Shown piece by piece: positions 15,922 to 58,997 of a DNA stretch of 64,000 nt. The notes beneath the pieces are model-generated. The model saw only the letters and a program-made list of their open reading frames with translations, had not been told where the DNA came from and made no database searches. The position numbers and the translations under genes are program-made. Source of the stretch: Eledone cirrhosa (taxonomy: Eukaryota); contig OZ024743.1 in assembly GCA_964016885.1 (NCBI GenBank), forward strand, positions 66,092,001 through 66,156,000, written 5' to 3'. Position 1 is the first letter of the stretch. The number at the start of each line of letters is the position of its first letter.

Positions 15922-15960
<39 letters not shown>

Positions 15961-16031
15961 TGTGTGTATATGTGTATGTGTGTGTAAATGTGTATGTACA
16001 TGTATGTGTGTGTACATGTATATATGTATAA

Positions 16032-16107
<76 letters not shown>

Positions 16108-16198
16108 ATTTACATATACATAAAGTCATAGATATATATGTTTTGCAACCGGTCACGTTGTGGCTCAAAGAAAAATTAATAAATTAAATAATCAGAGC

Positions 16199-16378
16199 AA
16201 TATATCATAAATCATGTCATTAGAATTATTAGATAAAATATATACCATTTCCTCTACCAATTACCATAATTAACCATATAAAAAATCAATTATTTTTTAT
16301 ATGGTTAATTATGCTAATTGGTAGAGGAAATGGTATATATTTTATCTAATAATTCTAAGGACAGGATTTATGATATAT
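16199..16378. repeat. ~85-bp-arm fold-back belonging to a small insert nested in a TA run of the right PLE arm
   Basis: tatatcataaatcatgtcattagaattattagataaaatatataccatttcctctaccaatta... followed by its reverse complement. Confidence 0.8.
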
Positions 16379-17120: not shown

Positions 17121-17258
17121 TTGCTTTTGACAACGGCTGATGATATACATGTAGGTAAATATATTCCTTATTTGATATTTTGTAACTAACCCTACATAGA
17201 TCGATAACGAAATATACCTACGATGTATTATTATCACCTAGAAATGATCGTAAAGCAG
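17121..17258 (+). ncRNA. Type I hammerhead, U3-A8 variant (mirror copy)
   Basis: TTGCTT 17121-17126; TTGACAA 17127-17133; GAAA 17241-17244; GTA 17250-17252; AAGCAG 17253-17258. Confidence 0.58.
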
Positions 17259-17425
17259 CTAATGACTTGAATTTTTATTTCATTATTTTAACTTATATCA
17301 TGACTCTGTTTTCCTTTTGATGTTTTATTGTTTTCCGGGATTTATTTTAACCTACAACATTTTCAACATATTGATTACATTGGGTTCTTCATGCAGACTA
17401 GACCCCACAACTAACCGAGTATATA

Positions 17426-20405: not shown

Positions 20406-21360
20406 CGTATTTTCCGTATTTATTACTGTTGTGAAATATTGTGGCTTTTTTTGGTTGTAACTTCTCTGTTTTTTAGCCTAAGAAAATATATATATATGCC
20501 TACGTATATAATTACATGCATATATTTATTTTCTTTTATTAATTGAGTTCTTTACACGAGGAATTAATATTGGTTTTGAAATAACTAATTAACACGCGTG
20601 CGTTTTATATTTTACTCTTAATTCGGCCGGAGAATTATATTCCCATTTGCCCTTTATTGTATAACTTTCTGCATTTACTGCGGTTATGAGAAGCGGTTCT
20701 TATTCGGGTAAAACTTCTGATTTAGCCTAAGAAAATATCTATATGCGTGTGTAATTTATACAAGCATATATTTATTTTTTTATTTTCAATTGAGTTCTTA
20801 AACACGTTGGATTGATAATGTTTTCAAAAAAACTAATTAACCCGCGTGTATATTATTATTTTTTTCCTCATTTCGTGGATCGTGGGTTGTCTCCCCTTCC
20901 CGCTTCGTGTCGCTATGATACTTCCTCAGTCAAAAACTGCTGGAATTTCAAATTTGGCGGTCATTCGAGGTGGGAGGGAGAACTTTACGGACACGTTTTT
21001 TGACAGCGGTAAGAAATTGTTTTCTTATATCAATGTTTAATGGGCTTCCACTGATGATTTATAAGTACCCACCTAAATATATTCTTACATGAATATATAT
21101 TAGGCTTCTACATAAACTGGAAACATTCCCCCAACTTGTAGAAAACTTATAATGAAACAATTGTTTGGAAAGAAAGATATACTTTAACCTTAATTATGTC
21201 TCATGAAATAATACAACTGGTTCTTCCACATTATACATATTGTTAGCACCCCAAACACTTAAATTGGGTTTATATTTTAATATAATCTAATGTTTGTTGA
21301 GTGAGATGGTTACCAGTCAGAGTTTAGCTTTAAACTATCTCTGTTATTGTATTAAATATG
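20405..21360 (+). mobile_element. Non-coding TA-flanked insert with a degenerate 249-bp duplication and a hammerhead
   Basis: tttagcctaagaaaata... repeated at 20472 and 20721; HHR at 21046-21170. Confidence 0.5.
21046..21170 (+). ncRNA. Type I hammerhead ribozyme (U10.1/U11.1, GUU site)
   Basis: TTCCA-CTGATGA-T-TTATAAGT...ACTTATAA-T-GAAA-CAATTG-TT^TGGAA. Confidence 0.75.
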
Positions 21361-23236: not shown

Positions 23237-23555
23237 AATTGTTTCTATTTTTGTCACAAGGCCAGCAATTACCCAGTACATTACTGGTACTTTATTTTAC
23301 CGACCCCGTAAGGATGAAAGGCAAAGTTAACCTCGGCGGGATTTGAACTACTACTACTACTAATAATAATAATAATTGTTTCTACTTTAGGCACAAGGCC
23401 AGCAATTACCCAGTGCATTACTAGTACTTTATTTTATCGACCCCGTAAGGATGAAAGGCAAAGTCAACCTCGGCGGGATTTGAACTCATATCGTAAGGGG
23501 ACATAACTATGCTGGAAAGCATGGCGTCCGACCCTCTACCGATACTGCCAATCCA
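23237..23555 (-). mobile_element. Two adjacent tRNA-derived SINEs (23237-23349 truncated; 23374-23555 full)
   Basis: Family signature present twice. Confidence 0.88.
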
Positions 23556-23562
23556 CAATAAT

Positions 23563-25552
23563 GATTTCATTTATTGGCCACAAGGGCCGACATATAGGGG
23601 ACAATACAAAAGACTGGGACAGTGGGGTTTTACAGAAACATCGAGTAAACAATATGAATAACAATAACAAAGTAACAATAAAAATACAACAAGAAAAATT
23701 CCCCAGTAGGGGGGGGGGGGGATGACCACCCAGGGTTCGTTCAGGTACCCCACCAATCATGAACGACCCGACGCTTCGAGAGCACCCTGGAAGGGCACCT
23801 CTCTCCTCCTCAAATTTACCCACCTACAGCCGCATGACCAGAGTAGGCCACTCACACGGGCCATTCTCGCCACATTCACCCACCTTTCAGCAAATGTACT
23901 GGGGGGAAGCACTTCTCTCTCCACCCTCACCTTCCTTTACAAATGAAACTTGAAAAAGTTGATGAGGGATTGGCCGAAGAGAAAAGTGTCTGTCTTCAGT
24001 CATTTCAACCTCGTCCACCATACAACCTCTTTCGCTACTGCCACCAGACAGAAAAATGTCCTGCCCTTCCTGGCCAAAAGAATGCGGCGGGTCGATCTTC
24101 ACTATGGACTCGGCCGATAGCCGGATCCGTTCTACACGCGACAACAGCTGTTCGACATAACTCCACAAGTCAGTAATGCACGGACACTGGACGAGTGCGT
24201 GCAAAACGGTTTCGTCGCTCTGCGCGCATCTCGGGCAGGTCCGTCTGACAGCACTTCCGTGCCTGTAGAGTTTATCTCGAACCGGCAGTGCCCCCCGGTA
24301 GCACTGCCAAGCGAGGGATTTTTGGAAATTATCCATCGTCCCCGGTTCGAAAGTCCTCCGGAACAGACTGGTTAGTTCGACTTCGTCGACTCCCAGAGCC
24401 TCTCCGAGTGCGTCGTCGCACTTCCCACCACTAATAATCCTCAATAGAACTCGAGAGTTGAAATTCCACTGACCGCATTGCCCGCCTGGTAGAGGGAAGT
24501 GAGTGCCTGGCAACATTTCAGATGCCAGTCACCCAGTCTCGGTCTCTTCTTGACCCAGGACTGCAGCTCAGTCAAAGAAACCAGCTGCGGAAAGGCCCGT
24601 CTGACAAACGGCGACCACACCGGTTCACCATTTAGGCAGAATATCTGGAGATGCCACAGCCTCATCGCGTATCTGCGCATCATTAGCCACGGCATGCCCA
24701 ACCCTCCACGTAGAGGGTGCTGGCAGCAGATGGACCGCCTCACCAGCGGAACCTGACCCCTCCACAAGAATTTGAAGAGGAGCCGCTCCAAGATGGCGAG
24801 GCGCGAACGGGGGCAAGGGACGACAGTCAGACAGTAGTAGATGACGGACGCGATGTACGCGTTCGCCACCTCCGCTCGACCTTTCAGTGATAGCTTCCTT
24901 CCAGCCCATTTCTGGGTGAGACTGGCTACCCTGCCCGTCACCTCGTCCCAATTCTTATCTACCTGGAGGTCTGGCCCGAACCAAACCCCGAACAACTTTA
25001 CCGGTCCGTCCGTCCAGCGCCGAACCACGCTGTTTGACGGCATGGACTTGCCTCTCCAGGTGCCGAGTTGCAAGCCCACCGACTTTTTCGGGTTAAGTTT
25101 TGCTCCCGTCAACCTTTCATATTCCTCCAATAAGTTGCTGACCACATCTATTTCTGAGGTATCCGACACAGCCTTTCCGCATCCCGGTTCGAGCGGGATG
25201 CCCTGCAACAGCTCCAGCTTCCGCAGTAAAGGCTCGAGAGTCAATACGTACAGAAGGGAGGAGAGAGGGCCCCCTTGACGGACCGATCGGTAGACCTGAA
25301 ACGATTCCGAGAGGTGGCCATTAATTTTGACCACCGTGCAGGTGCCGCTGTACATTGCAGCGATCCAGTTTCTGAAGACGGGACCAAAGCCAGCCGCCTT
25401 GAGGACAGCCTCCAGGTACCGATGGTCGACTCTATCGAGTGCTTTCTTTTGATCTAAATTAATCAGGTCACCACCGAAGCCAGGTTTACACCCTACCCTC
25501 TCTATGATGTATCGCATTAGGTGGAGGTTGTCGTGTATGGACCTGGTTGGGT
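23563..25552 (-). pseudogene. Tx1/L1-clade LINE ORF2 (RT + C-terminal Zn finger), frameshifted, with 3' UTR
   Basis: LDQKKALDRVDHRYL, VRQGGPLSSLLY, LSLKGRAEVAN, GGLG and CPRCAQSDETVLHALVQC in ORFs 24441-25517 and 23887-24516. The YADD segment is deleted. Confidence 0.9.
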
Positions 25553-26420
25553 CATAATGTGAATGACCGTCCCATTCTGAAGGAGGATGTGGTCCGGGAT
25601 TGTCTTCACATTCTCGGGCCTGATCTGGAGAAGTATCTCCAGGTCAACCCCGGACCAGTCCTCTCTGGCCGTTCTGGTCAATTCTATAGGGACGGTATCC
25701 GTCCCCTCCACAATCACACATCCCAGAAGCCACCACATGTCAAGTCCTGTTGAGATTCTGGGAATGCGGAGATGTGCCGTTCTTTTCACATGTGGGAGGG
25801 GTACATTATGACCTTGCTGGTTTATCAAGGATTCATAGCGTGCTTCATAGCGAGGGCTTCTGACTTGAACAGCACCGAAATGGTGCCGTATTGTCTGCCC
25901 CTTGCTGTGTATTCGGTGTCTTCTCTGATGCACCTCAGTGCGACTTCGACATCTGCTTGTGGGATTAAAGCTGCCTTTTGGTTTCTGCTGAGATGCATCT
26001 ATAATGGACCGTTCTGAGCTCCACTGCCTCAATAGCTTCTACCGGGACAGTTAAGTTGGCCCAGGTTTGCTCTTGCTTGATGAGCTTCCATGCCTGGGCC
26101 AACTTTTCATCTTTGTTTGAGAGGTCCATGTTGAAGCATGGCCTCTTTTTTTCTGCTGCCGCAGCGAAAGTGTTCTTCTTGTTGTCGTTGGAGGTGTTGT
26201 TGTCGTTGTCGTTGTCTTGTTAGTGTTGTTGTTATCACTGTCGCAGTTATCATTGTTGTCTTTGTTGCCACCGTTGTTCTCGGTGCAGTTGGTATTGTTG
26301 CTGTTGGTGTTGTCGCTGTTTGTTTTCATGTTAGTGGTGTTGATATTGTTGTTGCATTTGTCATTTTTTTTTGTTATCTGTTTTTTCGTTGTAGCTGTTA
26401 CTGTCATTTTTTTCAAAATT
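25553..26420 (-). pseudogene. Probable degenerate LINE ORF1 fragment
   Basis: Manual translation gives an Asn-rich start, then NTFAAAAEKKRP...AWKLIKQEQ and YGTISVLFKSEALAMKHA...KRTAHLRIPRI, with stops and frameshifts. ORF1 identity is inferred from style and position. Confidence 0.45.
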
Positions 26421-26431
26421 AGAGTTCTCAT

Positions 26432-26725
26432 TGGTATCGAACCAGGCCCCGAGCAATTTCACCGGTCCTTCCATCCAGCGTCCGACAACACTGTCGGACG
26501 GCATCGGTTTGCCTCTCCACGTTCCGAGTTGCAAACCGACAGACTTGTCCGGGTTCAGTTTTGCTTCTGTGAACCTTTTGTATTCCTGTAGTAGTTTGCC
26601 GATTACCTTGATTTCCGAGGTTTTCGACACCATTACCGTCACGTCGTCGGCATAAGCCGACGCCGCTTTTTGCCGTCCCGGTTCTAATGGGATGCCCTGC
26701 AAAAGCTCCACCTTCCGCAGTAGGG
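26432..26725 (-). pseudogene. Tx1-like RT fragment containing YADD
   Basis: SAYADDVTVMV...KLNPDKSVGLQLGTW in ORF 26361-26711. Confidence 0.88.
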
Positions 26726-26874
26726 GCTAACGCTACTATGGGGTTGTTTTACACCCCGTGGATAGACCAACCCTCAACACCAGGAACTCGTTTTGTAAGT
26801 GCTCCCGTCTTCCCTCTATTTATCTTCCTCAACCTACAGGTTTATATCCGACGTTCTAACGTTGTCGCATTACA

Positions 26875-28328: not shown

Positions 28329-28565
28329 TGAAGGCGCATGGCTTAGTGGTTAGAGCATTGGGCTTGAAATCGAAAGGTTGTGAGTTCAATTCTCGGACTG
28401 GGTGATGTGTTGTCTCCTTGAGCAAGACACTTTATTTCACATTGCTCCAGTTTACTCAGCTGTAGAAAGGAGATGATAGGACTGGGGTTCCTATCATTAA
28501 ATCACCCAAGACACCTCCAACGAGATATACCTTGGAGGAGGCCAGCTAAAGCTGCATAGGTGTAA
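28329..28565 (+). mobile_element. Second tRNA-derived SINE family (CORE-like)
   Basis: TGGCTTAGTGG A-box, GAGTTCAATTC B-box, ccttgagcaagacacttt core; partial reverse copy at 57908-58035. Confidence 0.78.
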
Positions 28566-31007: not shown

Positions 31008-31072
<65 letters not shown>

Positions 31073-31077
<5 letters not shown>

Positions 31078-31847
31078 GAAGTTAGTATGCCCGTGGGTAC
31101 TAAGTACCCCCGGAAATACATAGGTTGTCTATGATTTAAGGTTGTTCTATGGTATCAATTTGACATACCAGAACTATAATATTAATATAAGCAGAACAAG
31201 CAAAATTCAACCAATTTTTTAAAATAAATTAAAAAATATAATTTAAATATTTACCTATTCTTTTGGCCCTTACCGATCGGTTTTGCCTTGTAAAACACTA
31301 GAGATCCAATGGATTTCTAATGGAAAATCAAGGCTCATGGTTGAATTTTGCTTGTTCTGCTTATATTAATATTATAGTTCTGGTATGTCAAATTGATACC
31401 ATAGAACAACCTTAAATCATAGACAACCTATGTATTTCCGGGGGTACTTAGTACCCACGGGCATACTAACTTCTTCTATTACTCTCCGTTATGTTGAGAA
31501 CAAATCTGTTGTTTCTATTTAGCTGCTATTTTTAGTAACGAGATAGACAACATGTCTATGTTTTTCCCGCTTTCACCTCGGGTAGTTCGCGTACAGGTCA
31601 TTTTTCGGCCTTTTGGATCTGTGCTAGCTGGCAGATAACAATATATTTTATCGTTCCTGGGTCTTTAGCCCTAGGAAAGGAAAATGCTTCTCTGATGAGC
31701 CTTGATTTTCCATTAGAAATCCATTGGATCTCTAGTGTTTTACAAGGCGAAACCGATCGGTAAGGGCCAAAAGAATAGGTAAATATTTAAATTATATTTT
31801 TTAATTTATTTTAAAAAATTGGTTGAATTTTGCTTGTTCTGCTTATA

Positions 31848-31852
<5 letters not shown>
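31073..31852 (+). mobile_element. Non-coding hammerhead-bearing unit (482-nt monomer) with 5' inverted arm
   Basis: ggttgaattttgcttgttctgcttatattaat occurs at 31339 and 31821. 31073-31338 is a reverse-complement copy spanning the monomer junction; (TA)n flanks. Confidence 0.82.
31686..31767 (+). ncRNA. Type I hammerhead ribozyme, canonical core, palindromic stem III
   Basis: CTGATGA 31692-31698; stem II GCCTTG/CAAGGC; GAAA 31749-31752; ACCGATCGGT palindrome; cleavage after GTA at 31762; stem I TTCT/AGGG. Confidence 0.8.
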
Positions 31853-31880
<28 letters not shown>

Positions 31881-31884: not shown

Positions 31885-32243
31885 GATCCCGTTAAACTTT
31901 AATCTGTTATTTTAATAAATATTTGCCCTAGGGTCCTTATATATTTGATATATATTCATCCTTATCGAACCCTCTTTGGATTTTAGTCTTCACATTTATT
32001 ATTATTACTATATATATATATATATATGTATAGGAAAAGAATCAGGACCCCCACAGCTGAGCTGCGGTCGTTACGACAGCTAGATCCGAACTAATTGTAC
32101 TAACTGTCGAAACGGACGGAGCTTAGCCGTCAGGGTCCTAACTCTTTTCCTATTACCCACTCTACTACTCGAGTAGAGTGGGTAATAGTATCGAATGCTC
32201 TGGTGCGTTATGGTCCACCTGGTTTCTTACCGCACTTTCTTTA
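31881..32243 (+). mobile_element. Family B fragment (31881-32010) and family A fold-back element (32031-32243)
   Basis: Homology to 5562-5720 and 5337-5534; GAAA-CGG...CCG-TC half-ribozyme at ~32109-32131. Confidence 0.65.
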
Positions 32244-32277
32244 TATATATATATATATAACAACTAGAAATTGATTA

Positions 32278-32365
<88 letters not shown>

Positions 32366-32740: not shown

Positions 32741-32795
<55 letters not shown>

Positions 32796-32800
<5 letters not shown>

Positions 32801-33476
32801 ATACTTTGGGAGGGTCATGTTGCCAATAAGAAACACACGCACCAGTTGCTTTCACTTCAATTTATTATAATAAATTTATAAATTTATAAATTTCTGGTTG
32901 GTTGGTTGGTTCCACAACCAGATAGTTGTTTATATATTGTCATAGTTCTTTTGTCACAAACTCTGTGACCTCTTCAGTGACTGGGTATTCCTTTCTTTGT
33001 TTCTGTGCCTCTCCTTTGTTCTGTCCTACGCCATTTTGTTTCTGTGTGTGTGTTGTGTGCTCAGTCTGCGCATGCGCCACATCCGGGTGTCTGTGTGTGT
33101 TTATGTTCATTTATTTATTTGTTTATTTACATGTTACTGGTTGGTTGTTTGTTCTATGTGTGTGTGTGTTTTCATTTTGTCCTTGTAAATGAACACTGGC
33201 GAGACCTTCAAGATAGTAAAGAATCATCTGTACTCTACCAACATGCTAAAATAGAACACAAGGGTAAATTAGAAAACATAGAAATAAAAATAGAATCTAC
33301 ACACAGAAAAGACGCAATGTTTAGACAAATTACAGAGGCAATAAACATAAAAGAATTACAACCAAAATTAAATAGAAAATATGAGTGGAACAGCAATATC
33401 ACAACTTACAATTAAGGACAAAATGAAAACACACACGCACATAGAACAAACAACCAACCAGTAACATGTAAATAAA
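32796..33476. mobile_element. Truncated, inverted PLE of a sister family to 49513-53800
   Basis: Minus arm is a pLTR ending in an MTLPKYNN tail. Plus arm 33190-33415 encodes EHWRDL..SVLYQHAKIEH..FRQITEAINI..PKLNRKYEW. 33122-33185 is mirrored at 33413-33476. Confidence 0.85.
32939..32981 (-). ncRNA. Minimal hammerhead in pLTR, G12 lost (probable CpG decay)
   Basis: Reverse complement: GTCA-CTGAAGA-G-GTCACA gagtt TGTGAC-AAAA-GAAC-TA^TGAC. Confidence 0.62.
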
Positions 33477-34875
33477 GAGCTGTGGATTCGAAACCACATC
33501 TCTTGTTTGAGGATGAGGTGTTACCAATTACATCAACCTATCGCCTGTGCTTCAGTGTCTATATCTTTCAGTGTCTATATCACTTTTTATTAGCAAATAT
33601 AATTTGTGCTGAAACATTCATTAGACAACACTACCCTATAAAACCCCTCAAAATATTTCTGTTTCTTTATCATATTTAATTATATAATTAAAGTGGATAT
33701 TATGCACAAGGCCAGCAATTGTGTGAAGGGATGGGGAGAGTCAATTTATACTGAGCCCTGTATTTACTAGGGCATTATATTATCACCCTTGAAGAGATGA
33801 ACAGCAAAGTTGATCTCGGCCGGATTTGAACTCCGAGTGCTGTGTGTCGTCACAAATATCGGAAGTATTTTCAATCCGACACCCTAACGACTTTACAAAC
33901 TCCTCACCACCATACTTAGATAGTTGTTCTATTTATATTTAAAAAATATAGAATGGCGCTTAGAAACCTGATAGTGAAACATAAGACTAAATATTTACAG
34001 CCGAGAAATTCAAGAATGTTCTGTTCACACAATAGATAATACTGAAGGGAAAGAGATTTTACAATTTAATATTGATATTCTTCCTTTTCAGTCACAGCTG
34101 GCCAGGAAAAAAAAGAACAACAGTCAAGAGGTGAGAGAACTAATGGTGTGTAATCCTTCACTGGTAATTTACTGTGATTCTTCTTCTCTCATATGAGACT
34201 GTTGCTGTCTTAGGTTGTCGTTCGACTGATCAAGATCAAAGATCAGCGATCAGTTTCCAGGGCCCACTACAAGGAGGTCGACAGCTTGGTCCCCACTTTT
34301 ATCATAGTTTACAGGTTTAACTGTTAGTCAATAATTAGCCTATCATGTCGGTTATTGATATCATGGAGTAGTGCAGTTTAAATATGAATTTAGCTAAAGT
34401 TCTGTGCTACAGAGATGATTATTGTTATCTAGTTCACTTGTGAACCCACAGTTATAATCTTATCTTATTAAAGGGTGTCTAGATGTACTTCAATAATATA
34501 ATATCCTGTACGCGGAGACACGTACTGATAATTGTAATGAATAGTTGAGATTCCTACTGTTGATACAAGGTCATGCATTTGATGTGGAGAAAGTGGCGTG
34601 ATCTCTGATATTAAAGCAATCCCCAGTACTTGAATCGTAAGAAAAATAGCATAATTGATCTTGATGAGAAGTAGACAAAGATAAACAAATGAAATAATCA
34701 AATATTAATTTCAAATTTATTCATATGGCCAATATATTTGGGGGGAAAGGCAAATTTAATTAAACAAAGCACAGGACTTAATATTAATTATGGAAGTGTA
34801 TCGAAACATAATCGAATACGGTGTCATTAAATAATTTCCTTATTTTACAGCCCGCAATATATATATATATATATA

Positions 34876-40378: not shown

Positions 40379-40438
<60 letters not shown>

Positions 40439-40440
<2 letters not shown>

Positions 40441-40689
40441 AACGCCAGGACCCCGACGGCAGAGCTCAAGCCCTTTTGACGGCTATTTAGGGCTAAATTA
40501 GATATTTAGTGTGGTGTAGATATCTAAACCACGCTCTAAAAATTTAATTTAGTCCAGAAAAAGCCGTCGAAATGGCTTGAGCTCTGCTGTCGGGGGTCTT
40601 GATTTTTTCCTATTACCCACTCTACTACTCAAAGTATCGAATACTCTGGTGCGTTATCGTCCACCTGTTTTCTTACCACATTTCCTTCG

Positions 40690-40692
<3 letters not shown>
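40439..40692 (+). mobile_element. Family A element with 5' fold-back
   Basis: Inverted arms ~40447-40487 and ~40560-40600; shared 3' tail; (TA)n flanks. Confidence 0.7.
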
Positions 40693-40742
<50 letters not shown>

Positions 40743-47046: not shown

Positions 47047-47048
<2 letters not shown>

Positions 47049-47954
47049 GACCGATGCAGTCCTGGGTCAAGCAAAGACCAAGGAAAATGGGCGACTGGCA
47101 CATCGAATGGGCTCAGGTGCTCACAGTCCTCTGCGAAACGGACCCGGCGATCAGTGGAGACTCCACTTCGTCATTCTATAGAGGGTTGGTCCGCAGCAAG
47201 TGCGACGACGCGCTCGGAGAAACTCTAGGCGTAGAGGAGGACGAACTGGCCAGTCTGTTTGGTAGGAGCTTCTGCCCGGGACCGATGGACAACTTCCAAA
47301 AGTCCCTGGCTGCCATGCGTGCGAGACGAAGAAATCGTCGCGCACGCATTTGTACACTGCCCGGGCGTGACCGACCTGTGGGGTTATGTAGAACGACTAT
47401 TTTCGCGGGTGGGACTAATCCAGTTGGCCGCCGAATCCAGTGTCATGATCAAACCGCCACCCTCCTTCAAAAACGAGGGAGAGGCGGTTTTCCTATGTGT
47501 TATGGCTATGGTGAAAGAGGTTATATGGTGGACGAGGTTAAAAGGGCTGAGGTCAGACACCTTTCTCTCCGGCGAACAACTGATTCGTTTTATCAAATAA
47601 CATTTTGGAAGAAGAATCAGGATGGAGAGAGAGGGGCTGTACCCCAGCAAATTTTATAAAAGGTGAGTGAATGTGGCAAAGATGGCCCGAGTGGTTGGGC
47701 CTTCTCTCTATATAAGCCTGTAGGTTGAGGAAAAAGAGGAAGAGAGGAAGGGAGTACTCACTCTTGGTGCTCCTGGAGATGAAGGTTGTACATTGTTTCG
47801 GGGTGTGTACAACCCCTGTGTAACGCCTCCCCCTATTGGGGATTTCAATTGTTATTTGTTATTTTATTAATAGTTTTATTTTCATATGCCTGTATGTAAA
47901 CTCCCCATTTGTATTCGTCCCCTTCTTTTGTGCCCCAGTGGCTACTAAAGAAAT

Positions 47955-47956
<2 letters not shown>
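47047..47956 (+). pseudogene. Tx1-like LINE 3' fragment in (ATCT)n
   Basis: Homologous to 56611-57590 with an internal deletion; ends aaagaaattt(atct)n. Confidence 0.88.
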
Positions 47957-48026
<70 letters not shown>

Positions 48027-48072
48027 AGATATGTATGTGTGTATATACATGTATGTATGCATATATATGTAT

Positions 48073-48749: not shown

Positions 48750-49300
48750 AAATTAGACAATTATCAAAGTTATGTTCAAATCATTTAATTGCTGACAATC
48801 GTTTCTTCCAAACATTCGTTTGGAGTCATCGGAGCATTATCAATAGTTGTACATATAATTAACCTCCTATTCAACTGAACAGTCATATAGATACATATAT
48901 ATTGATGTTGTGAGCAATTTCGTATTTACAGGGTGTAATGGATGCGACATATATTATACTTGAATTGTACAAAAATTCAAATTAAAAGCACAGAGTGGAA
49001 TACATGCGACAGATAATACAAGAGAATAGTCTAATAATTAAAGAGGCATTGAGAAAGAATGAGGACACTGGCAGTACATATGCAAGCGTGTAGAAAGAGC
49101 ACATGCGTTAGTCATATATATGAGAAGGAAACAAGCAAAGGTATTAGGCATATATAAATAAATAAATAAATACTGTATGGCAAAGGTATCACATAAAATA
49201 CCAAGCAAATGTGTTAGTATATTTGAACACTATCATCACATTACATCCGCCATACATTTTTAATATACTAACACATTTGGTTGGTATTTTATGTGATACC
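48750..49300 (-). mobile_element. Non-coding hammerhead-bearing element with fold-back at its 5' (right) end
   Basis: Inverted arms 49185-49222 and 49263-49300; HHR at 48790-48836. Confidence 0.6.
48790..48836 (-). ncRNA. Minimal type I hammerhead, U4C change (possibly decayed)
   Basis: Reverse complement: TGCT-CCGATGA-C-TCCAAAC gaat GTTTGGA-A-GAAA-CGATTG-TC^AGCA. Confidence 0.62.
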
Positions 49301-49412
49301 TAGTAACATTATTATTATTATTATTTTTTAGACACATATATATATTTCTAATTGAATGGGTTAGAAATAGACAAACACATAGACATACAGAGAGCTAGAC
49401 AGGTAGATAGAC

Positions 49413-49444
<32 letters not shown>

Positions 49445-49462: not shown

Positions 49463-49516
<54 letters not shown>

Positions 49517-49678
49517 CGGTGATGAATTAGTTTTGCGAGGTTTTTTTATATGAAATCGTGTGTCGAAACAAATATTGTTATAGTTGGGGAGGGTCATATT
49601 TGTGTAATATTGCGAGAAGCGAAAACCAACCAAACAGTGAATGTGTTCTGTTATTAATTCTGGCAATATTACACAAAT

Positions 49679-51496
49679 ATGACCCTCCCCAAGTATAACA
49701 ATATTTGTTTCGACACACGATTTCATATAAAAAACCTCGCAAAACTAATTCATCGCCGCTATGGCATTAGCTTGTGCCAAGCTGAAAGGTTATTGAAAGA
49801 CACTGTTTTCTGTTATATAAAAACTACAATAACAAGAGAACAAATCCGCTTCTTAAAACACTGTGTTTCCTCCAAAATATACACAACAAACATATCAAAA
49901 CAAGTAAATAATTTATTATTGAACAAAACACAAGCTGAACGACTAAAACACACAATAACAGTTAATATGAAAAGAACAACATACACAAAAGTCAACGAAC
50001 TTTACAGACAGAAACGCATTAACGGTAAGGAAGTTCGAAATCTCACCACACCAAACGAGAGGGATAACTTCATGAGCGTCATCCGACGTGAAACGAAATA
50101 CGCCCGAAACGAATGCAATAGGCATTTCAATAAGAAATTAGAATGGATGAATAAGAAAAAACTACAAGAAAGGAAAATAGAATATTCTCAAAAATACCCA
50201 GATAACATCGACAATATCCGTATGACTGATGTAAAACTACCGGAAGAATTTACCAATGACCACACAGTAAATATTTATGGGAACACTTTAATCAGTGAAC
50301 AAGAACAACAAATCCTGCGGCTATCACCAAAATTTGCCATCTACAAAAAGATTAACCCTATGGAGTGCAAAACGGAGCTGGAAAAGTGTTTCACAAAAAT
50401 ACGTTGGAATGCAAAGGTAAACAACAACAACAACAACAATAATAACGGTAGTAGTAATATAAACAATAACTCTGAGTATAGAAATAACAGCCATAACAAT
50501 AACAATAGCAGGAAAGTGAGAAATAGTGATAATGGTAATAATACTAATGATAGACAGAACAACAACAACCACAATAATAATAATAATAGAAACATTAACC
50601 ACAGACACAGCAGCAGCGACCACAGTAGTAATAACGGTAACAATACGAACAACAACAACAATAACCACAGTGGTAATAATGGAAATAGTACATGTAGCAA
50701 CATTAATGAAAGACACAACAAAAACAAGAAACATAATAAAAGTAACAACCACAATGGTAGAAATAACAGTAACAACAACAATAACGGCGAAGTAAACAAC
50801 AATACATCTAGCAATCATAACAATAATAATAATGCTAATGATAGAAACAACAACAACCACCATGATAACAATAATAGCAACACACACAACTATGACGATA
50901 GATATAATGACAACCCCTTAGAGAAACTATTTTTCAACCCAGCTGACAAAACATATAATATGGGTAATATTTATCCTACGAGGTTACCCTTTAATAAAAG
51001 AGTTTGCATACCACAACAAATAGATGACGAGACAGAGGCACAGTTCACCATAGCTAGAAATAAGATTAGACAAATAGTAGACAGGTATACTAAGAGAAAG
51101 AGCAGACCAGACGCCCAACAACTTGGGAGGAAACCTGTAGAAGGCTTGGTTAGCCTCAAGCAGCGCACAAGGGATGTTGAGGTAGTATGTCTACCCACGG
51201 ATAAGTCTGGTAGGATGTCAATAGATAGCATGCCGAACTACATCAAGGCTATGCAACCCCACATCACCAACACGAGCGAAATTGCACAACAAACACACGA
51301 TGGGAGAGAGAAAATCCTCAACGCTCACATGATGATGTGGACTGACATCCTAAAGCCAAGCAGACGCACTGCCAACAACTTCCAGGCGTCTAACAATGGC
51401 ATACCACCCTTGTATGGGCTCCGCAAAGACCACAATACAGAGTCGACGACCCGACAACAGGACCACCAACAAGACCCGTATGCGGAGCTAATATAG
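49679..51496 (+). CDS. PLE polyprotein N-terminal part (Asn-rich insert, DKSG and LYGLRKDH motifs); frameshifted at ~51435
   Basis: 605-aa ORF with ILRLSPKFAI, CLPTDKSGRM and PPLYGLRKDH; continues in another frame as VDDPTTGPPTRPVCGAN. Confidence 0.88.
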   Translation: MTLPKYNNICFDTRFHIKNLAKLIHRRYGISLCQAERLLKDTVFCYIKTTITREQIRFLKHCVSSKIYTTNISKQVNNLLLNKTQAERLKHTITVNMKRTTYTKVNELYRQKRINGKEVRNLTTPNERDNFMSVIRRETKYARNECNRHFNKKLEWMNKKKLQERKIEYSQKYPDNIDNIRMTDVKLPEEFTNDHTVNIYGNTLISEQEQQILRLSPKFAIYKKINPMECKTELEKCFTKIRWNAKVNNNNNNNNNGSSNINNNSEYRNNSHNNNNSRKVRNSDNGNNTNDRQNNNNHNNNNNRNINHRHSSSDHSSNNGNNTNNNNNNHSGNNGNSTCSNINERHNKNKKHNKSNNHNGRNNSNNNNNGEVNNNTSSNHNNNNNANDRNNNNHHDNNNSNTHNYDDRYNDNPLEKLFFNPADKTYNMGNIYPTRLPFNKRVCIPQQIDDETEAQFTIARNKIRQIVDRYTKRKSRPDAQQLGRKPVEGLVSLKQRTRDVEVVCLPTDKSGRMSIDSMPNYIKAMQPHITNTSEIAQQTHDGREKILNAHMMMWTDILKPSRRTANNFQASNNGIPPLYGLRKDHNTESTTRQQDHQQDPYAELI

Positions 51497-51528
51497 CTAG
51501 TAACTACAGGATCTCCTACTTCCTCTCA

Positions 51529-53322
51529 ATGGTTATACGCCCCATAATCAAGATGTCCCCAGATGTATGTGACAGTACAGAGGACCTCCTCAGCATAATC
51601 AGTGAGTGCAACAAAAACAGGAACCTATCCAACTGCATAATAGGCAGCATGGATATGGTGTCACTGTACCCATCCATTAACATTGATTTTGCTGTGAAAA
51701 GATGTGTGGAGATGATCATTGAGAGTGAGGTGGAGTTCTGCAACGTCGACACAGACGAACTGGGCCTCCTACTTAGACTTACCTACGACACTGACTATCT
51801 AGACAGCCATGACCTTAGACGTTTCTGCCCTTGTAGACCTATAAGAAGTAGACCCCCCACCATAACCTCAATGCCAAAAAAGACTCCCATGGGAAGGTGG
51901 ATTGGGTGGACCAAAGCTATACGGACCCCCCAAAACAATGATCAGGTAAGAAAAATGGTCGCACATGCAATAGGGGCTAGTATCAAAACTACCCGAAAGG
52001 GCCACATATTTAAGTTCAACGAGAAGATCTACACCCAAAATGAGGGAGCAGCCATCGGCGTCAGCATAGCTGGTGACGTTGCCAACCTTTTCGTGGTATG
52101 GTGGGAAAGGAGACTTAAAGATCTCCTTAATGAGAGCTCCATAGACCTCATCATGTACTCTCGTTATGTAGACGATATCAATATAGTTATAAGAACACCC
52201 CCACTAGAGAGCACTAACAAGTTTGATTTAGAACGTAGCACGATGGAAAGCATCCAGCAGATAGCTAATTCCATACACCAGAGTATAACTGTAACTATCG
52301 ACTACCCTTCCAAACACCCTAACAATAGACTACATGTATTAGACACGGAACTCTGGATTAACACTATAGACGAGAGAGCCCAAATTCTCCACTCACACTA
52401 TGCTAAACCCATGGCCTCCAAATACATGATACTCAAAAACTCAGCAATGTCCAGTAGTGCTAAGTTTAATATTCTGATCGCAGATTTGGTACGAGTGATG
52501 AAGAATGTGTCCCGCATGTGCGACCCAACAGAAATGGAAAGACACATCCAACACTTCATCAACCGCATGCAGTTCTCTGGCTACAACCAAAGAGACAGAC
52601 TCAGAGTATACGAAGGAGCCATGGAGAAGTATAAGACCCTCATAGAACTGGACATGAAAGGAATTTGCTCATTATACAGGAGCACATCATGGAATAGCTT
52701 AGATAGGGCTAGACATAAGATAGGGAAAGCCACCTCATGGTACGACAACCAGAGATACCAGAGTGTCATGTTTGTGGACGCTACCCCTGGAGGGAAATTA
52801 GCTAACCAGTGTAGAAAGGCCCTGAGAAAGACCAACTTAAAAATTAAGGTGGTAGAAAAGCCAGGAACCACCATAAAATCCCTGATCAGCAAAACCTACC
52901 CTTTTAAGAAAACCCACTGCACCAATAGGAAATGTATCATATGTAAGGTAAACCCCCGGATAAACTGTAAAACTAGAAACGTAGTCTATAGCATAAGATG
53001 TACAGAGGGTACTTGCAGAAACATGACAACAACATACATAGGTGAGACAGCTCGTAGCATAGGTGAAAGGATAGACCAACACTGGGGGGAACTAAAAGGA
53101 CGAAAAAACGGGTCAGTACTATACGAACATGATAGACAACAACATGACGGTAACATAGACAACATAGAAATTAGAATAATATCTAAACATAGAAATGACC
53201 CAGCAGATAGGCAAATCAGAGAGGCCAGTGAAATAGAAATTAGAAGACCAAGACTAAACAGAAAGAATGAATGGAATAACACCAACACCCAAACAAACAA
53301 CACTGACCTAAGAGGAGTATAA
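51529..53322 (+). CDS. PLE reverse transcriptase + Cys-rich linker + GIY-YIG endonuclease
   Basis: GSMDMVSLYPSI, YTQNEGAAIGVSIAGDVANL, YSRYVDD, HCTNRKCIIC, VVYSIRC..C..YIGETAR..ER..QH; the frame is open from ~51440. Confidence 0.93.
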   Translation: MVIRPIIKMSPDVCDSTEDLLSIISECNKNRNLSNCIIGSMDMVSLYPSINIDFAVKRCVEMIIESEVEFCNVDTDELGLLLRLTYDTDYLDSHDLRRFCPCRPIRSRPPTITSMPKKTPMGRWIGWTKAIRTPQNNDQVRKMVAHAIGASIKTTRKGHIFKFNEKIYTQNEGAAIGVSIAGDVANLFVVWWERRLKDLLNESSIDLIMYSRYVDDINIVIRTPPLESTNKFDLERSTMESIQQIANSIHQSITVTIDYPSKHPNNRLHVLDTELWINTIDERAQILHSHYAKPMASKYMILKNSAMSSSAKFNILIADLVRVMKNVSRMCDPTEMERHIQHFINRMQFSGYNQRDRLRVYEGAMEKYKTLIELDMKGICSLYRSTSWNSLDRARHKIGKATSWYDNQRYQSVMFVDATPGGKLANQCRKALRKTNLKIKVVEKPGTTIKSLISKTYPFKKTHCTNRKCIICKVNPRINCKTRNVVYSIRCTEGTCRNMTTTYIGETARSIGERIDQHWGELKGRKNGSVLYEHDRQQHDGNIDNIEIRIISKHRNDPADRQIREASEIEIRRPRLNRKNEWNNTNTQTNNTDLRGV

Positions 53323-53554
53323 ATAAGTAAATAAAATAAAATAAATAAATAAATACATACACAAGCACAATAACAAGCACATAAACACACACTAGTCACC
53401 CATCACACATCAAACAAAACACTATACACACACGCAAACGCATGCGCAAAGAAGACAAAATACAATAAACAAACAAGCAAATAAATAAATAAATATATAG
53501 ACAGACTGAATAAAAATGGCGTAGACATACAATACAACAGGTGGAAAAAATAGC

Positions 53555-53596
53555 ACCACTGACGATGTTGCAGATGTGCAACGAAAGATTTATGAT
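53555..53596 (+). ncRNA. Minimal hammerhead-like motif in the 3' pLTR
   Basis: ACCA-CTGACGA-T-GTTGCA gatg TGCAAC-GAAA-GATT-TA^TGAT; aligns with 32939-32981; stem I imperfect. Confidence 0.58.
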
Positions 53597-53821
53597 AAAC
53601 TATATATGTGTGTTTGTGTCTATATTGTATCTGTATTATTTTTGACCGTCGGTCAGTCAATGGCAACATTGAGGACCGAGTAAGTTAGATTACCGATATA
53701 AAAGACACAGAAGCGAGAAGCGAAAACCAACCAAACAGTGAGTGTGTTCTGTTATTAATTCTGGCAATATTACACAAATATGACCCTCCCCAAGTATAAC
53801 TATATATATATATATATATAT

Positions 53822-53934
53822 ATAGCTCAGCCGTCGGGGTCCTACTCGTTCCTATTACCCACTCTACTACCCTAAGTATTGAGTACTTTGGTGTGTTATG
53901 GTCCACCTGGTTCCTTACCACATTTCCTTCGTTA
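53822..53934 (+). mobile_element. Family A 3' fragment
   Basis: gccgtcggggtcct...ttaccacatttccttcgtta. Confidence 0.7.
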
Positions 53935-54168
53935 TGTATATATATATATATATATATATATAGCAATATATATATATATAATAATAAAGTATGAATTCCT
54001 ACGTGTAAAAAATACATATAGGGAAGCAAGTATTATCCAACCGTATGTCAATGTGGTTCTATGGCGGGTTAATAAATTAACAAGCCAGAACATATAAAAT
54101 CAAGGTCTAGCAAATAGAGAAAAAGTTTTAAAATAAATTTTTAAAAATTCGCTGTACTTACTATATGT

Positions 54169-54250
54169 GCCTTTACCGCGGTTTCATGTTCCAGAATAAA
54201 CGGAAGATCCAAGCGGATTTATATTGAGAAGGGAGTAATCTTCAGAAGGT
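54169..54250 (-). ncRNA. Type I hammerhead (copy 1)
   Basis: Reverse complement: CCTT-CTGAAGA-T...T-GAAA-CCGCGG-TA^AAGGC. Confidence 0.7.
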
Positions 54251-54655
54251 TCTTCTCCCTCGGAGAATATAAAATTTCCGATTTCAAATCACAAACTGAC
54301 GCCATACAAAACCATTCCCAAATGAGAGCGGATGATGAAAGAAATAATTCTGTCTGGTGCCGTGTGCAAAGACAAAAGGCAGGGTGGACAGGTCAATGTC
54401 CTGCCACTAGAAATAGCAGCAGTCCAAACGGCCAAAATTTTATTTCTACCTTAGGGGGAGATTAATAATAATAAAGAATGAATTCCTACGTGTAAAAAAT
54501 ACATATAGGGAAGCAAGTATTATCCAACCGTATGTCAATGTGGTTCTATGGCGGGTTAATAAATTAACAAGCCAGAACATATAAAATCATGGTCTAGCAA
54601 ATAGAGAAAAAGTTTTAAAATAAATTTTAAAAAATTCGTTGTACTTATTATATGT

Positions 54656-54737
54656 GCCTTTACCGCGATTTCATGGTCAAGATTAAACGGAAAATCCAGG
54701 CGGATATTCATTGAGAAGGGAGGAATCTTCAGAAGGC
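54656..54737 (-). ncRNA. Type I hammerhead (copy 2, stems II/III decayed)
   Basis: Reverse complement: GCCTT-CTGAAGA-T...T-GAAA-TCGCGG-TA^AAGGC. Confidence 0.6.
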
Positions 54738-55160
54738 TCTTCTCCCTCGGAGGCACATATAGTAAGTACAGCGAATTTTTTGAAATTTATTTTAAAACTT
54801 TTTCTCTATTTGATAGACCTTGATTTTATATGTTCTGGCTTGTTAATTTATTAACCCGCCATAGAACCACATTGACATACGGTTGGATAATACTTGCTTC
54901 CCTATATGTATTTTTTTAGACGTAGGAATTCATACTTTATTATTATTAATCTCCCCCTAAGGTAGAGATAACATTTTGGCCGTTTGGATTGCTGCTATTT
55001 CTAGTGGCAGGACAATTACCTGTCCATCCTGCCTTTTGTCTTTGCACACGGCACCAGACAGAATTATTTCTTTCATCATCCGCTCTCATTTGGGAACGGT
55101 TTTGTATGGCGTCAGTTTGTGATTTGAACTCGGGAATTTTATATTCTCCGAGGGAGAAGA

Positions 55161-55242
55161 GCCTTCTGAAGATTGCTCCATTCTCAATGGAAATCCGCTT
55201 GGATTTTCCGTTTATTCTGGAGCATGAAACCGCGGTAAAGGC
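55161..55242 (+). ncRNA. Type I hammerhead (copy 3, best preserved; U10.1/U11.1)
   Basis: GCCTT-CTGAAGA-T-TGCTCCA...TGGAGCA-T-GAAA-CCGCGG-TA^AAGGC; cleavage after 55237. Confidence 0.8.
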
Positions 55243-55304
55243 ACATATAGTAAGTACAATGAATTTTTAAAAATTTATTTTAAAACTTTTTCTCTATTTT
55301 CTAC

Positions 55305-55391
<87 letters not shown>

Positions 55392-55575
55392 ATGTCTATC
55401 TGTCTAGCTCTCTGTCTGTCTATGTGTTTGTCTATTTCTAACCTATTCAATTAAATATTGACGCATTATCCGTTTTTCTAGCTATCTATCTATCAAATCA
55501 ATCAATCAATCTATCTATATATCTATCTATCTCTATCTATCTATCAATCTATCTGTCTGTCTGTCTATCTATCTC

Positions 55576-57588
55576 CTGGTGGGAGAAGCGCAGACATGCG
55601 CAATCCCGACCAGGTCCATACACGACAACTTCCACCTCATGCGATACATCATAGAGAGGGTAGGGTGTAAACCCGGCTTCGGTGGGGCCCTAATCAACTT
55701 GGATCAGTCTTAGGCTTTCAATAGGGTTGACCATCGTTACCTGGATGCGGTGCTCGAGGCGGCAGGCTTCGAACCCGTTTTCGGGGCTGGATTGCTGCAA
55801 TGCACAGCAGCAACATCTGCTCAAGGGTCAAGGTGAACGGTTACCCCTCGGAGCCGTTCCATATCACGCGATCCATCCGACAGGGAGGCCCTCTCTCCTC
55901 CCTTCTGCACGTACTGACTCTCGAGCCACTACAGCGGATGCTGGAGCTATTGCAGGGCCTCCCTTTGGAACCGGGACTGCGAAAAGCGGCGTCGGCCTAC
56001 GCCGACGACGTAATAGTAATGGTGTCGTGCGCCTCGCAAATCAGGGAGATCGGCACCTTGATAGAGGAATACGAAAGATTTACAGAAGCGAAGCTGAATC
56101 GGGACAAATCCGTCGGTTTGCAACTCGGAACGTGGAGAGGCAAACCGATGCCTTCCGATGGCGTCGTCGGACGCTGGACGGAAGGACCGGTAAAGCTGCT
56201 CGGGGTCTGGTTTGGTCCGGACCTCCACGTGGAGAAGAACTGGAACGAAGTGACGGCCAAGGTTTTTGCGCTCACCCAGAACTGGGCCGAGTGCAAACTA
56301 TCCTTGAAAGGTCGAGCCGAGGTGGCGAACACTTTTATAGCGTCCGTCATCTACTACTGCTTGACCGTCGTGCCTTGTCCAGCCAAAACGCTCACCAAAA
56401 TGGAGCGCGCGCTCTTCCAATTCCTTTGGAAGAAACGGGCTCCTTTGGTGAGAACCATCTGCTGCCAACACCTTTCAAACGGAGGGCTGGGAGATGCCGT
56501 GGCTGACGATGTGCAAACACGCGCTCAGGCTGCGGCACCTCCACGTATTCCTCACCAGACAACCGGTGTGGGCCCCGTTCGTGAGGCGAGCCTTCCCACG
56601 ACTCGTCTCGCTGACCTAGCTGCAGTCCTGGGTCAAGCAAAGACCGAGGAAAATGGGCGACTGGTACATCGAATGTGCTCAGGCGCTCACAGTCCTCTGG
56701 CAAACGGACCCGGCGATCAGTGGAGACTCCACTTCGACATTCTATAGAGAGTTGGTCCGCAGCAGGTGCGACGACACGCTCGCAGAAACTCTAGGCGTAG
56801 AGGCGGACGAACTGGCCAGTCTGTTCGGTACCAATGGACAATTTCCAAAAGTCCCTGGCCTGGCAGTGCTACCGAGGAGCTCTACTAGTTCGAGACAAGC
56901 TCTACAGACACGGCTTCCCGGGTAGGGACCCTTCGAAAAAGATCTGTCCGAGATGCGTGCGCGACGAGGAAATCGTCGCGCGCGCATTTGTACACTACCC
57001 GCGTGTTACCGACCTGTGGGGTTATGTAGAACGACTATTGTCACGGGTGGGACCAATCCAGTTGACCACCGAGTCCATTGTCATGATCAAACCGCCACCC
57101 TCCTTCAAAAACGAGGGAGAGGCGGTTTTCCTATGTGTTATGGCTATGGCGAAAGAGGTTATATGGTGGAAGAGGTTAAAAGGGCTGCGATCAGACACCT
57201 TTCTTTCCGGCGAGCAATTTATTCATTTTTTCAAATATTTTGGAAGAAGAATCAGGATTGACAGAGAGGTGCTGTACCCAAGCAAATTTTATAAAAGGTG
57301 GGTGAATGTGGCAAAGATGGCCCGAGTGGTTGGGCCTTCTCTCTATGTAAGCCTGTAGGTTGAGGAAAAAGAGGAAGAGAGGAATGGAGTACTCACTCTT
57401 GGCGCTCTTGAGGATGAGGGTTGTACATTTTTTCGGGGTGTGTACAATCCCTGTGTAACGCCTCCCCCTATTGGGGATTTCAATTGTTATTTGTTATTTT
57501 ATTAATAGTTTTATTTTCATATACCTGTATGTAAACTCCCATTTGTATTTGACCCCTTCTTTTGTGCCCTTGTGGCTAATAAAGAAAT

Positions 57589-57590
<2 letters not shown>
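55576..57590 (+). pseudogene. Tx1/L1-clade LINE ORF2 (RT + Zn finger), frameshifted, in (ATCT)n
   Basis: IRQGGPLSSLL, SAYADDV, LSLKGRAEVAN, CPRCVRDEE; AATAAA then (atct)n; the 5' flank is also ATCT-rich. Confidence 0.92.
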
Positions 57591-57635
<45 letters not shown>

Positions 57636-58997
57636 CCTTTCCATCTGTCTTTATTTTTATAATATGTCCATCCTCGTAAACTTCACTTTCACGATAATGA
57701 AGTTATTTATCATAAAAACAATTTGATCTGAAATAAAAAGTTATTCGTTTAAAACCTCAATGTTATATCTGTTGTAAGATATTTACTGTTAAATATATTT
57801 ATGAGTTTCGTCGAAGAAAGCATGTAACTACGCTACAACTACTGATAAATTTTAACAAAACATTATTAAATTTGTGCTGAGTATTAGACTTAAGGAGGAC
57901 AGCTCACACCTATGCAGGTTTAGCTGACCTCCTCCAAGGTATATCTCGTTGAAGGTGCCTTGGGTGATTTAATGATAAGTATCCCAGTCCTAACATCTCA
58001 TTTCTACAGCAGACTAAACTGGAGCAACGTAAAGTTTACCTTTCAACCATTCAAGGTCGATAAAAATGTACCAGCCAAGTACTGGGTCGATTCTTTTTCT
58101 ATATCTCTTTCTCACTTTCATTCTTTCACTTTCTATCATCCTCTGGAAAGAGTTTTCTGTATTCAGACCTGGAGGGGGATAGGCTCCACCATGTTAAAAA
58201 ACACAACAAAACAATATTCTAGAAATGCCGTATGTCAACGACTCCCTCGGGGGTTATGGCACCATGGAGGATGCATAAATGCATTCTTTCTTGATCTGTA
58301 GCTAACTGTTAAAATGTGGAAGGATCGTTCGTAAACAAATTTAATTTAAACTATTAGATATTTTCACGTTTCATTCACAGTTTTGTCCGCGAGGTGCAGT
58401 CGAAACCCACTCTGACCTAGGTGAAGTGTCTGTCAACCTCTCCCCTTTGCCCTTTCTTTTTTCAGTTGTTCTATGAGTCCTTGATCTTTTCCTCCTTTTC
58501 CTCTCATTTATGGTATTTATAGTCCTTTCGAATGCTGCTTTCTATTTCTGTATGTTTGACCAATTTAGAATTATATCAACAAAAGATTATATTTTTTGTT
58601 ACATTTTCACACGTAACCTATAGAGATATCTGGTGACCTTGGCCCTAGGATCACATCCCTACTCACCACCATCGGTACGGAGTTTGGCTACCCGAAGGTG
58701 TGATCCTCGCGAGCTGGAATGGCTTTTCTAACGCGTCTCACCCATCATCCTCCGGGGAAATGCCTTGTCTATTCTGTCCGCCAGAACAGCGGGGCGGCCA
58801 GCGCGTTGCCCTTTATTTGCTTATAATAGTGAGAGATGGGGAGAGCGAGAGAGACGGAGGCAGTGACTATACCAGCATTGCTGAAGTATTTTGTAGAGTT
58901 AAAGGTTAAGTAATTTTATGATAAATAGGTAGATTTCGGTCCCCCCTCCCCCCACACCTACCTACTCAGTGCTTCACCTATATGTATATTTGAAATT

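Follow-up and report, generated by a model that had tools for sequence, protein, structure and literature searches.

Two copies of a non-coding 487-nt unit that carries a predicted hammerhead ribozyme diverge from a common point in the 64,000-nt stretch analysed here (the window), which is AT- and microsatellite-rich animal DNA. Self-comparison showed that the two arms abut 5' end to 5' end at 54750/54751. The minus-strand arm occupies 53978..54750 (773 nt, equal to 1.59 units) and the plus-strand arm occupies 54751..55299 (549 nt, equal to 1.13 units), and the whole locus is an inverted repeat of about 1.2 kb without a spacer. It is flanked by (TA)n at 53939..53977 on the left and at 55307..55392 on the right. 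Both ends of the insertion lie inside (TA)n, where a target-site duplication, which in retrozymes exceeds 4 bp when present, cannot be read. The GC content of the unit is 37%, its longest internal ATG open reading frame (ORF) encodes 54 amino acids, and no ORF for a reverse transcriptase (RT) with a GIY-YIG endonuclease was found within it.

Positions in the unit are given relative to the predicted cut, with +1 as the first base past it. The plus arm spans +2 via one ribozyme to +63, followed by 7 nt and then (TA)n, and the minus arm spans -89, across two ribozymes, to about +196, where it meets (TA)n through TA-rich microhomology. The 3' ends of the two arms are unequal by 133 nt; a related family of the window (family B) has a corresponding offset of 107 nt, and the neighbouring Penelope-like element (PLE) has one of about 57 nt. 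The plus arm opens at 54751 with AGGCACATATAG; its first base corresponds to the second one in AAGGCAC, the 3' product of cleavage. Since the AG at 54751..54752 is compatible with either arm, the true join could be anywhere from +2 to +4. An earlier note on this DNA had placed the start of the plus arm at 54751, its cut after 55237 and an AG shared with the minus arm, and had described two ribozymes 487 nt apart in the minus arm; our analysis confirmed all of these, with the minus-arm cuts after 54661 and 54174. The "tandem dimer" that it saw captured there does contain two ribozymes in tandem, but the arm is only 1.59 units long. The plus arm, which it extended to 55300, stops at 55299 and also crosses an uncut ribozyme.

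Type I hammerhead cores were located by a motif scan at 55166 on the plus strand and at 54732 and 54245 on the minus strand, with predicted cuts after 55237, 54661 and 54174, respectively. The standard hammerhead numbering is used throughout. The copy in the plus arm (55161..55242) is predicted to be intact, with a CUGAnGA (here CUGAAGA) and GAAA core, a UH cut site, three stems and an open stem I of 5 bp. Its stem II is 53 nt long with a U.U at the base, and at five stem II sites it has the family-majority letters. Its stem III is the palindrome ACCGCGGT (55229..55236, plus strand). Stem II is broken in both minus-arm copies (54656..54737 and 54169..54250, minus strand), which are altered at the identical stem II sites -62, -47 and -15, to different bases, and the first of them has the imperfect palindrome ATCGCGGT. 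When folding was compared with shuffled sequences, the plus-arm ribozyme region gave a z of -3.11 and the minus-arm copies gave -0.34 and +0.44; among the three copies, better-than-shuffle folding was limited to the plus arm. The probability of stem I in the whole-arm fold was about 0.5 in the plus arm and 0.0 for both ribozymes of the minus arm. No Rfam hammerhead was found in the window at the gathering score, the single Rfam match being a tRNA, and the long stem II is a likely reason for the missing match.

As a monomer, the plus copy has a stem III of only 2 bp closed by a tetraloop, and its active fold (-25.8) carries a penalty of about 3 kcal/mol relative to the free fold (-29.1). In a dimer, the palindrome is predicted to form an 8-bp intermolecular helix, and the unconstrained cofold of two plus-arm ribozymes was exactly the double hammerhead, at -69.5. 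The point is the shape of this fold; the energy gain on dimerisation was rejected as evidence, since 36 of 200 shuffles match it. Cofolding of the two minus-arm ribozymes did not give the double hammerhead. The palindrome is retained with other letters in relatives, as ACCGATCGGT at 31692 and as ACCGTACGGT in a loose end of sequencing run X4. The idea that palindromic stems could form a dimeric hammerhead at this locus is thus upheld, as a prediction, for a pair of plus-arm ribozymes with ACCGCGGT, and it fails for the minus-arm tandem pair, in which the ribozyme at 54732 has ATCGCGGT. A dimeric hammerhead and a multimer or circle as template are already known ideas. Dimeric hammerheads with a palindromic stem III have been published (PMC4209133, PMC7229834), and in the available text on Xenopus hammerhead dimers, eight of the nine assayed showed no cleavage (bioRxiv 10.64898/2026.07.22.740005).

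Four of seven sequencing runs (X1, X2, X4 and X5) were compared with one unit, 54045-54531. X1 and X2 are from one sample, and X4 carries another organism label; X4 has a small share, and nothing was taken from it beyond the tandem joint and a single loose end. X1 contains 0.43 of the words of the stretch and is probably not from the sequenced individual; it may represent another individual or a close species. Aligned to the unit were 1750 contigs of X1, 1777 contigs of X2, 2113 reads of X5 and 7 contigs of X4. The head-to-tail joint 54531→54045 was present in all four runs, which come from three studies (6 contigs in X1, 2 in X2, 1 in X4, and 76 reads from 18 starts in X5). In nineteen X1 contigs the unit breaks off at 54092 (+82) and TA-rich sequence follows, which gives a second 3' end zone. 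The summed contig depth in X1 was 2,400-114,000 per bin, compared with about 7-13 for single-junction contigs, a comparison that does not amount to a copy number. The unit is a multi-copy family that is dispersed in the genome and exists head-to-tail in DNA. An exact 25-nt pattern of the unit had no match in metagenome contigs.

That both arms exceed one unit and that the head-to-tail joint occurs in all four runs supports the longer-than-unit template proposed in the earlier note. The substitutions between copies that it reported were also found: the three passes through the unit differ by 2.6-12.2%, the divergence being 2.6-6.6% when the ribozyme is left out and 7.8-12.2% over the 90 nt that lead up to the cut. 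The ribozyme segment diverges more than the remainder (Fisher p=0.009, post hoc and on non-independent differences), and one possible reason is that the captured transcripts already had weak ribozymes. At sites that are polymorphic in the family in X1 (alternative letter 20-80%, among the rows listed), the passes agree at 16 of 19; this analysis used 34 of the 40 variant rows listed out of 364, after six with less than 10% alternative letter in X1 were dropped. At +148 all three passes have a C, the same C making up 0.1% of the X1 depth and 3 of 239 X5 reads. The sites are linked within subfamilies, by which a crude probability of sharing alleles is overstated. The passes clearly derive from one source lineage and not from random loci. 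Several differences are private to single passes, which fits later change. The earlier note had offered age or different templates as the source of the substitutions; age, as later change on one lineage, is favoured, and different source loci are not. A further idea, that both arms were copied from the same two-unit template in register, was dropped, with +32 for it and +22 against it.

Instead of a linear multimer transcribed from tandemly arrayed units, the template may have been a single circular monomer that was reverse transcribed by a rolling circle, and we hold this as a tentative possibility. A circle would agree with two arms that are longer than the unit and have permuted ends, with the alleles common to the passes at 16 of 19 sites and with the rare C at +148 in all three, and circular RNAs have been demonstrated for other animal retrozymes (PMC7229834). 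However, the passes are 2.6-12% apart, and both minus-arm ribozymes have changes at three shared sites, to different bases (overlap p ~0.008, post hoc); differences that already existed between units fit these observations at least as well as even ageing does. DNA alone cannot separate a circle from a homogeneous array.

A near-full-length PLE lies beside the locus at 49516..53805 on the plus strand, with an RT, a CX4CxxC linker and, at the C terminus, a motif of the GIY-YIG type. The motif is YIGET, which we take to be that of GIY-YIG. Two overlapping ORFs, an Asn-rich one (49658-51496) and one with RT and the GIY-YIG-type motif (51394-53322), provide autonomous-type RT and GIY-YIG coding over 49658-53322. 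The closest named relative of the protein is from Octopus vulgaris, with 67% identity, which suggests a host of the octopus lineage. This PLE has a minimal hammerhead at 53559 and an inverted 5' copy whose tail measures about 57 nt, and it is a candidate for the type of helper that the 487-nt unit would need. The unit itself had no match to either PLE terminal repeat in the window, including the pLTR of the neighbouring element. A 5'-truncated copy of the same PLE was also seen at 2494-3583 on the minus strand, as was another PLE 3' fragment, at 32790-33530, which has an inverted arm and whose hammerhead is minimal, lies on the minus strand at 32977 and has AAAA replacing GAAA.

Other hammerhead-bearing units of the window have the same layout. 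Family B (31072..31859) has a 481-nt unit arranged head to head, with a hammerhead at 31692 cut after 31762, a junction at +58/-67 and 3' ends at about +91 and +198. Its local alignment with the 487-nt unit (family A) scored 262, compared with 205 for the best of 300 shuffles, and judged from this alignment the two families are homologous. Their 3' ends coincide at an aligned position, +198 in family B and +196 in the 487-nt unit. Families E and F both have a long stem III and a GUC cut site; E occupies 1-686 with a period of 525 and a cut after 410, and F occupies 4230-4810 with a cut after 4623. They came from a scan that hit the window 6 times and none of 5 shuffled windows, and that missed some known cores; both have head-to-head junctions. 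A separate unit with period 432 was seen in (TA)n at 746-1327 (core at 1021, stem III ACTAGT, cut after 1051), with no inverted arm seen and without the hairpin described below. Weak hammerhead-like hits with a very long stem II at 21051-21165 (plus) and 20816-20929 (minus) may be due to chance.

One small structure is shared by families A, B, E and F. It is a 7-bp hairpin with a UUUY loop, present at 54991..55008 in the plus arm, where the end position +196 lies 45 nt to its 5' side, and at 54403..54420 on the minus strand in the minus arm. The motif has six exact matches in the window, every one within the hammerhead-bearing units of these families. The hairpin is 45 nt 3' of the (TA)n-joined end in family A, 43 nt in B, 48-53 nt in E and 43-45 nt in F; the motif was defined from these sequences, and its distance to the ends was not. 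Of 35 cells, 34 pair; three changes affect one side of the stem, and compensation on both sides was not seen. From its position and conservation, we propose the shared hairpin as a candidate PLE recognition or start-positioning signal.

The surroundings contain further repeats. Short repeats flanked by (TA)n, in which no hammerhead core was seen, lie at 4831-4961, 5335-5573, 32030-32300, 40433-40740 and 53824-53938; three copies of this family open with a fold-back, and one copy lies between the PLE and the retrozyme locus. More structures with inverted arms beside (TA)n, some of them nested, were observed at 13819-17298, 16200-16378, 5760-5883 and 49184-49301, and head-to-head insertion looks routine in the host genome. 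Inverted copies (90%) of another repeat, at 49342-49420 and 55386-55458, face each other across the block formed by the PLE and the retrozyme locus, which suggests repeated insertion into one microsatellite. A tRNA-like match at 28337-28400 and a dispersed repeat of about 185 bp with about 15 copies (e.g., 7924-8111 and 23362-23562) are likely SINE-related. Fragments of a GC-rich non-LTR retrotransposon RT family are present at 23840-26728, 47047-48034 and 55605-57667.

The locus has the characters by which retrozymes are recognised, namely short multi-copy head-to-tail units, each with a hammerhead, a GC content below 50% and no protein. It also has an inverted 5'-truncated copy beside a partial tandem, the arrangement expected of a PLE insertion, and five more strand-switch joints were found in the sequencing runs. 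Inverted 5'-truncated copies, tails and a bias to (TA)n are hallmarks of PLEs (bioRxiv 2021.04.23.441226), and PLEs have been proposed as helpers of retrozymes (PMC7229834; bioRxiv 10.64898/2026.07.22.740005). We therefore propose, with good though not full confidence, that the locus is a non-LTR retrozyme that was inserted into (TA)n by a PLE reverse transcriptase-endonuclease. Against the PLE-insertion model, the spacing of the start zones, 107-133 nt, exceeds the published tail of 30-40 bp, and the unit had no match to the pLTR of the neighbouring PLE.

The same layout would be produced if the unit were no more than the pLTR belonging to some autonomous PLE not seen here, and the locus a doubly 5'-truncated insertion of that element. 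The layout is typical of PLE insertions, Xenopus retrozymes match PLE pLTRs (bioRxiv 10.64898/2026.07.22.740005), and truncated PLEs have been reported with opposite-strand hammerhead pairs 100-700 bp apart. Yet the unit returns to its own start after each 487 nt and has no ORF from one ribozyme to the next, both in the window and in three studies, and matches neither PLE terminal repeat in the window, so we regard this origin as improbable. It is very improbable that the inverted junction is a fold-back artefact of the assembly or library, or an inversion that took place later at the DNA level. In favour of this, the locus is a spacer-less inverted repeat of about 1.2 kb, and its junction was not among the joints listed from the runs. 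The arms are about 5% apart, however, and therefore are not one molecule read twice; contigs of short reads contain five more strand-switch joints, of which two occur in X1 as well as in X2; and the minus arm meets (TA)n at the end position of family B.

Insertion of the retrozyme by PLE machinery would proceed as follows. The unit would be transcribed as a multimer, or be cut and then ligated into a circle. The predicted ribozyme would cut well only as a dimer, and uncut RNA would persist. The PLE protein would nick both (TA)n strands, as is suggested by the purified anole PLE, and each nicked 3' end would prime cDNA at an internal start zone, at about +196 or about +63 to +91. The anatomy shows that both copies (773 and 549 nt) passed through uncut ribozymes. 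Two cDNAs growing inward from two nicks, with their 3' ends joined via the AG, would result in the head-to-head layout seen, and the unequal ends would be the PLE "tail". The protein may be placed with the help of the conserved hairpin, which lies 3' of the main start at a distance of about 45 nt. The available text on the purified PLE describes cutting and extension of both target strands, two internal start sites on the RNA with a requirement for RNA 3' of the start, and a template that is mainly uncut RNA (PMC11167929).

The plus arm stops next to the predicted cut, and we considered whether its cDNA ran off a ribozyme-cleaved 5' end, with one base lost in the AG join, and whether such cut-site junctions recur. 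The chance of one junction having an end at +1..+4 is P=0.016; over the 12 arm ends of six hammerhead-bearing junctions in the window, with one hit, it is P=0.065. The other window junctions have no end at +1..+4: +58/-67 in family B, +187/-231 in E, about -342/-335 in F, and, for the PLEs, +121/+167 at 49516 and -241/-470 near 33185. The five strand-switch joints in reads, among the 15 of 27 joints listed, are +81/-140, +60/-6, +55/-75, +18/-87 and +9/-256; the head-to-head orientation is evident for +81/-140 and assumed for the other four. None of their ten arm ends is at +1..+4, the closest being +9 and -6, and no pile-up of molecule ends or loose ends at the cut (54172-54173) was found among the ends listed. 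The junction of the window (54172/54263 in the reference unit) was not among the 15 joints. No microhomology was seen at the listed coordinates of the five joints, for which the reference is the window copy; the donor copies differ, which makes this result weak. The footprint of a self-cleaved 5' end that the earlier note proposed was thus not borne out as a general rule, with 0 of 10 read-joint ends and 0 of 5 other window junctions at the cut. The footprint could not be called the "second independent" one, since no first one was found in the window. The breakpoint histogram, which that note named as the refuting test, is thin at five joints and likewise has 0 of 10 ends at +1..+4.

Every one of the five read joints has one end between +9 and +81. 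In a circular test the ends leaned towards the cut with p=0.12 for the ten read ends and p=0.017 when the four ends from the window were added, and the one-sided joint pattern gave p=0.004 under a null weighted by X5 depth but p=0.31 under X1-depth weighting. The skew of joints to the 3' side was rejected as evidence of cleavage: X1 depth weighting abolishes it, and arms that are short because they were primed at +82 would show it even if nothing was cleaved. Nor was the fall in depth over the cut accepted as a boundary, as the depth recovers at 54249-54282 and the loose ends at 54186 and 54242 reveal subfamilies with a different stem II. A further loose end in reads was seen at 54164. Finding none of five joints at the cut has a probability of 0.03 if half of the junctions ended there and 0.33 if a fifth did, so that common run-off is disfavoured and rare run-off is still compatible. 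In the available text on the anole PLE, no RNA reads start or stop at the cut (PMC11167929). The cut-site match rests on a single junction and may be chance. The stop of the plus arm at +2 is probably an ordinary truncation; run-off at a ribozyme-cut 5' end is a less probable origin, and that junctions of this kind recur is doubtful.

A broader claim, which we consider unlikely as a whole, is that an octopus-lineage superfamily of retrozymes of about 480-530 nt records the whole Penelope reaction. The hairpin would fix the RT start about 45 nt upstream of itself, priming would occur from both strands with uncut multimers as template, and a few of the cDNAs, the plus arm among them, would run off a cut 5' end. 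If true, it would be a genomic footprint of hammerhead cleavage in PLE-driven insertion, and it would identify the signal in the RNA that lets retrozymes use the proteins of PLEs. The movement of animal retrozymes and the role of the hammerhead in PLE insertion have been posed as questions (PMC7229834, PMC11167929, bioRxiv 10.64898/2026.07.22.740005 and bioRxiv 2021.04.23.441226), and in the texts available PLE help has so far been argued from co-occurrence and pLTR similarity. To this the locus and its relatives add the anatomy of insertion, i.e., an inverted copy, two start zones and a (TA)n target, which supports mobilisation of the retrozyme by a PLE. A small candidate signal would be the hairpin, whose distance from the start is fixed across four families that have diverged. 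The cut-site claim, if true, would matter most, because the sole purified PLE did not need cleavage. No description of cephalopod retrozymes or of junctions at a hammerhead cut was found in the literature searched, which was mostly outside subscription papers and supplements.

Compared with known systems, the locus resembles the animal non-LTR retrozymes (PMC7229834; bioRxiv 10.64898/2026.07.22.740005) in its type I hammerhead, its short, low-GC, non-coding head-to-tail unit, its many genomic copies and its co-occurrence with PLEs. The length of 487 nt is above the 150-450 bp given in PMC7229834 and inside the 51-972 bp given in bioRxiv 10.64898/2026.07.22.740005, which sampled vertebrates, insects and one coral. 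The axolotl ribozyme HHR_Amex2 has the same helix III of 2 bp and a tetraloop and the same U.U at the base of helix II; it cleaves better as a dimer, whereas the dimer at our locus is a prediction. Unlike in the known animal retrozymes, as far as the available texts describe them, stem II is extended to 53 nt, and an inverted head-to-head insertion, (TA)n targeting and fixed 3' start zones are not described in the available parts of PMC7229834 or bioRxiv 10.64898/2026.07.22.740005. The inverted insertion and the (TA)n target bring the locus close to the EN+ PLEs and their pLTRs, which have a partial tandem with an inverted 5'-truncated copy, a tail and (TA)n (PMC4209133; bioRxiv 2021.04.23.441226). 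PLE pLTR hammerheads also have a palindromic stem III predicted to act as a dimer (PMC4209133). In contrast to EN+ PLEs as described in these sources, the locus lacks an ORF, the unit follows upon itself in repeats, the tail measures 107-133 nt where theirs has 30-40 bp, and the ribozyme retains a full 5-bp stem I together with a small helix III.

A biochemical parallel is the Poseidon PLE of Anolis, for which the available text reports in vitro extension of both strands, two internal starts, an AT-rich target, an uncut RNA template and a requirement for RNA 3' of the start (PMC11167929). Poseidon is described as needing no target homology for initiation, whereas the 3' joins here have short TA microhomology; it is autonomous and starts in an AC-rich stem-loop (PMC11167929). 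The Chlamys MRC1-type elements are in general similar to their helper in the 3' part, and, as far as the available text goes, most Chlamys elements are without hammerheads (bioRxiv 2021.04.23.441226). Like the 487-nt unit as we interpret it, they are non-coding passengers of PLEs, with head-to-tail multi-copy insertions (bioRxiv 2021.04.23.441226).
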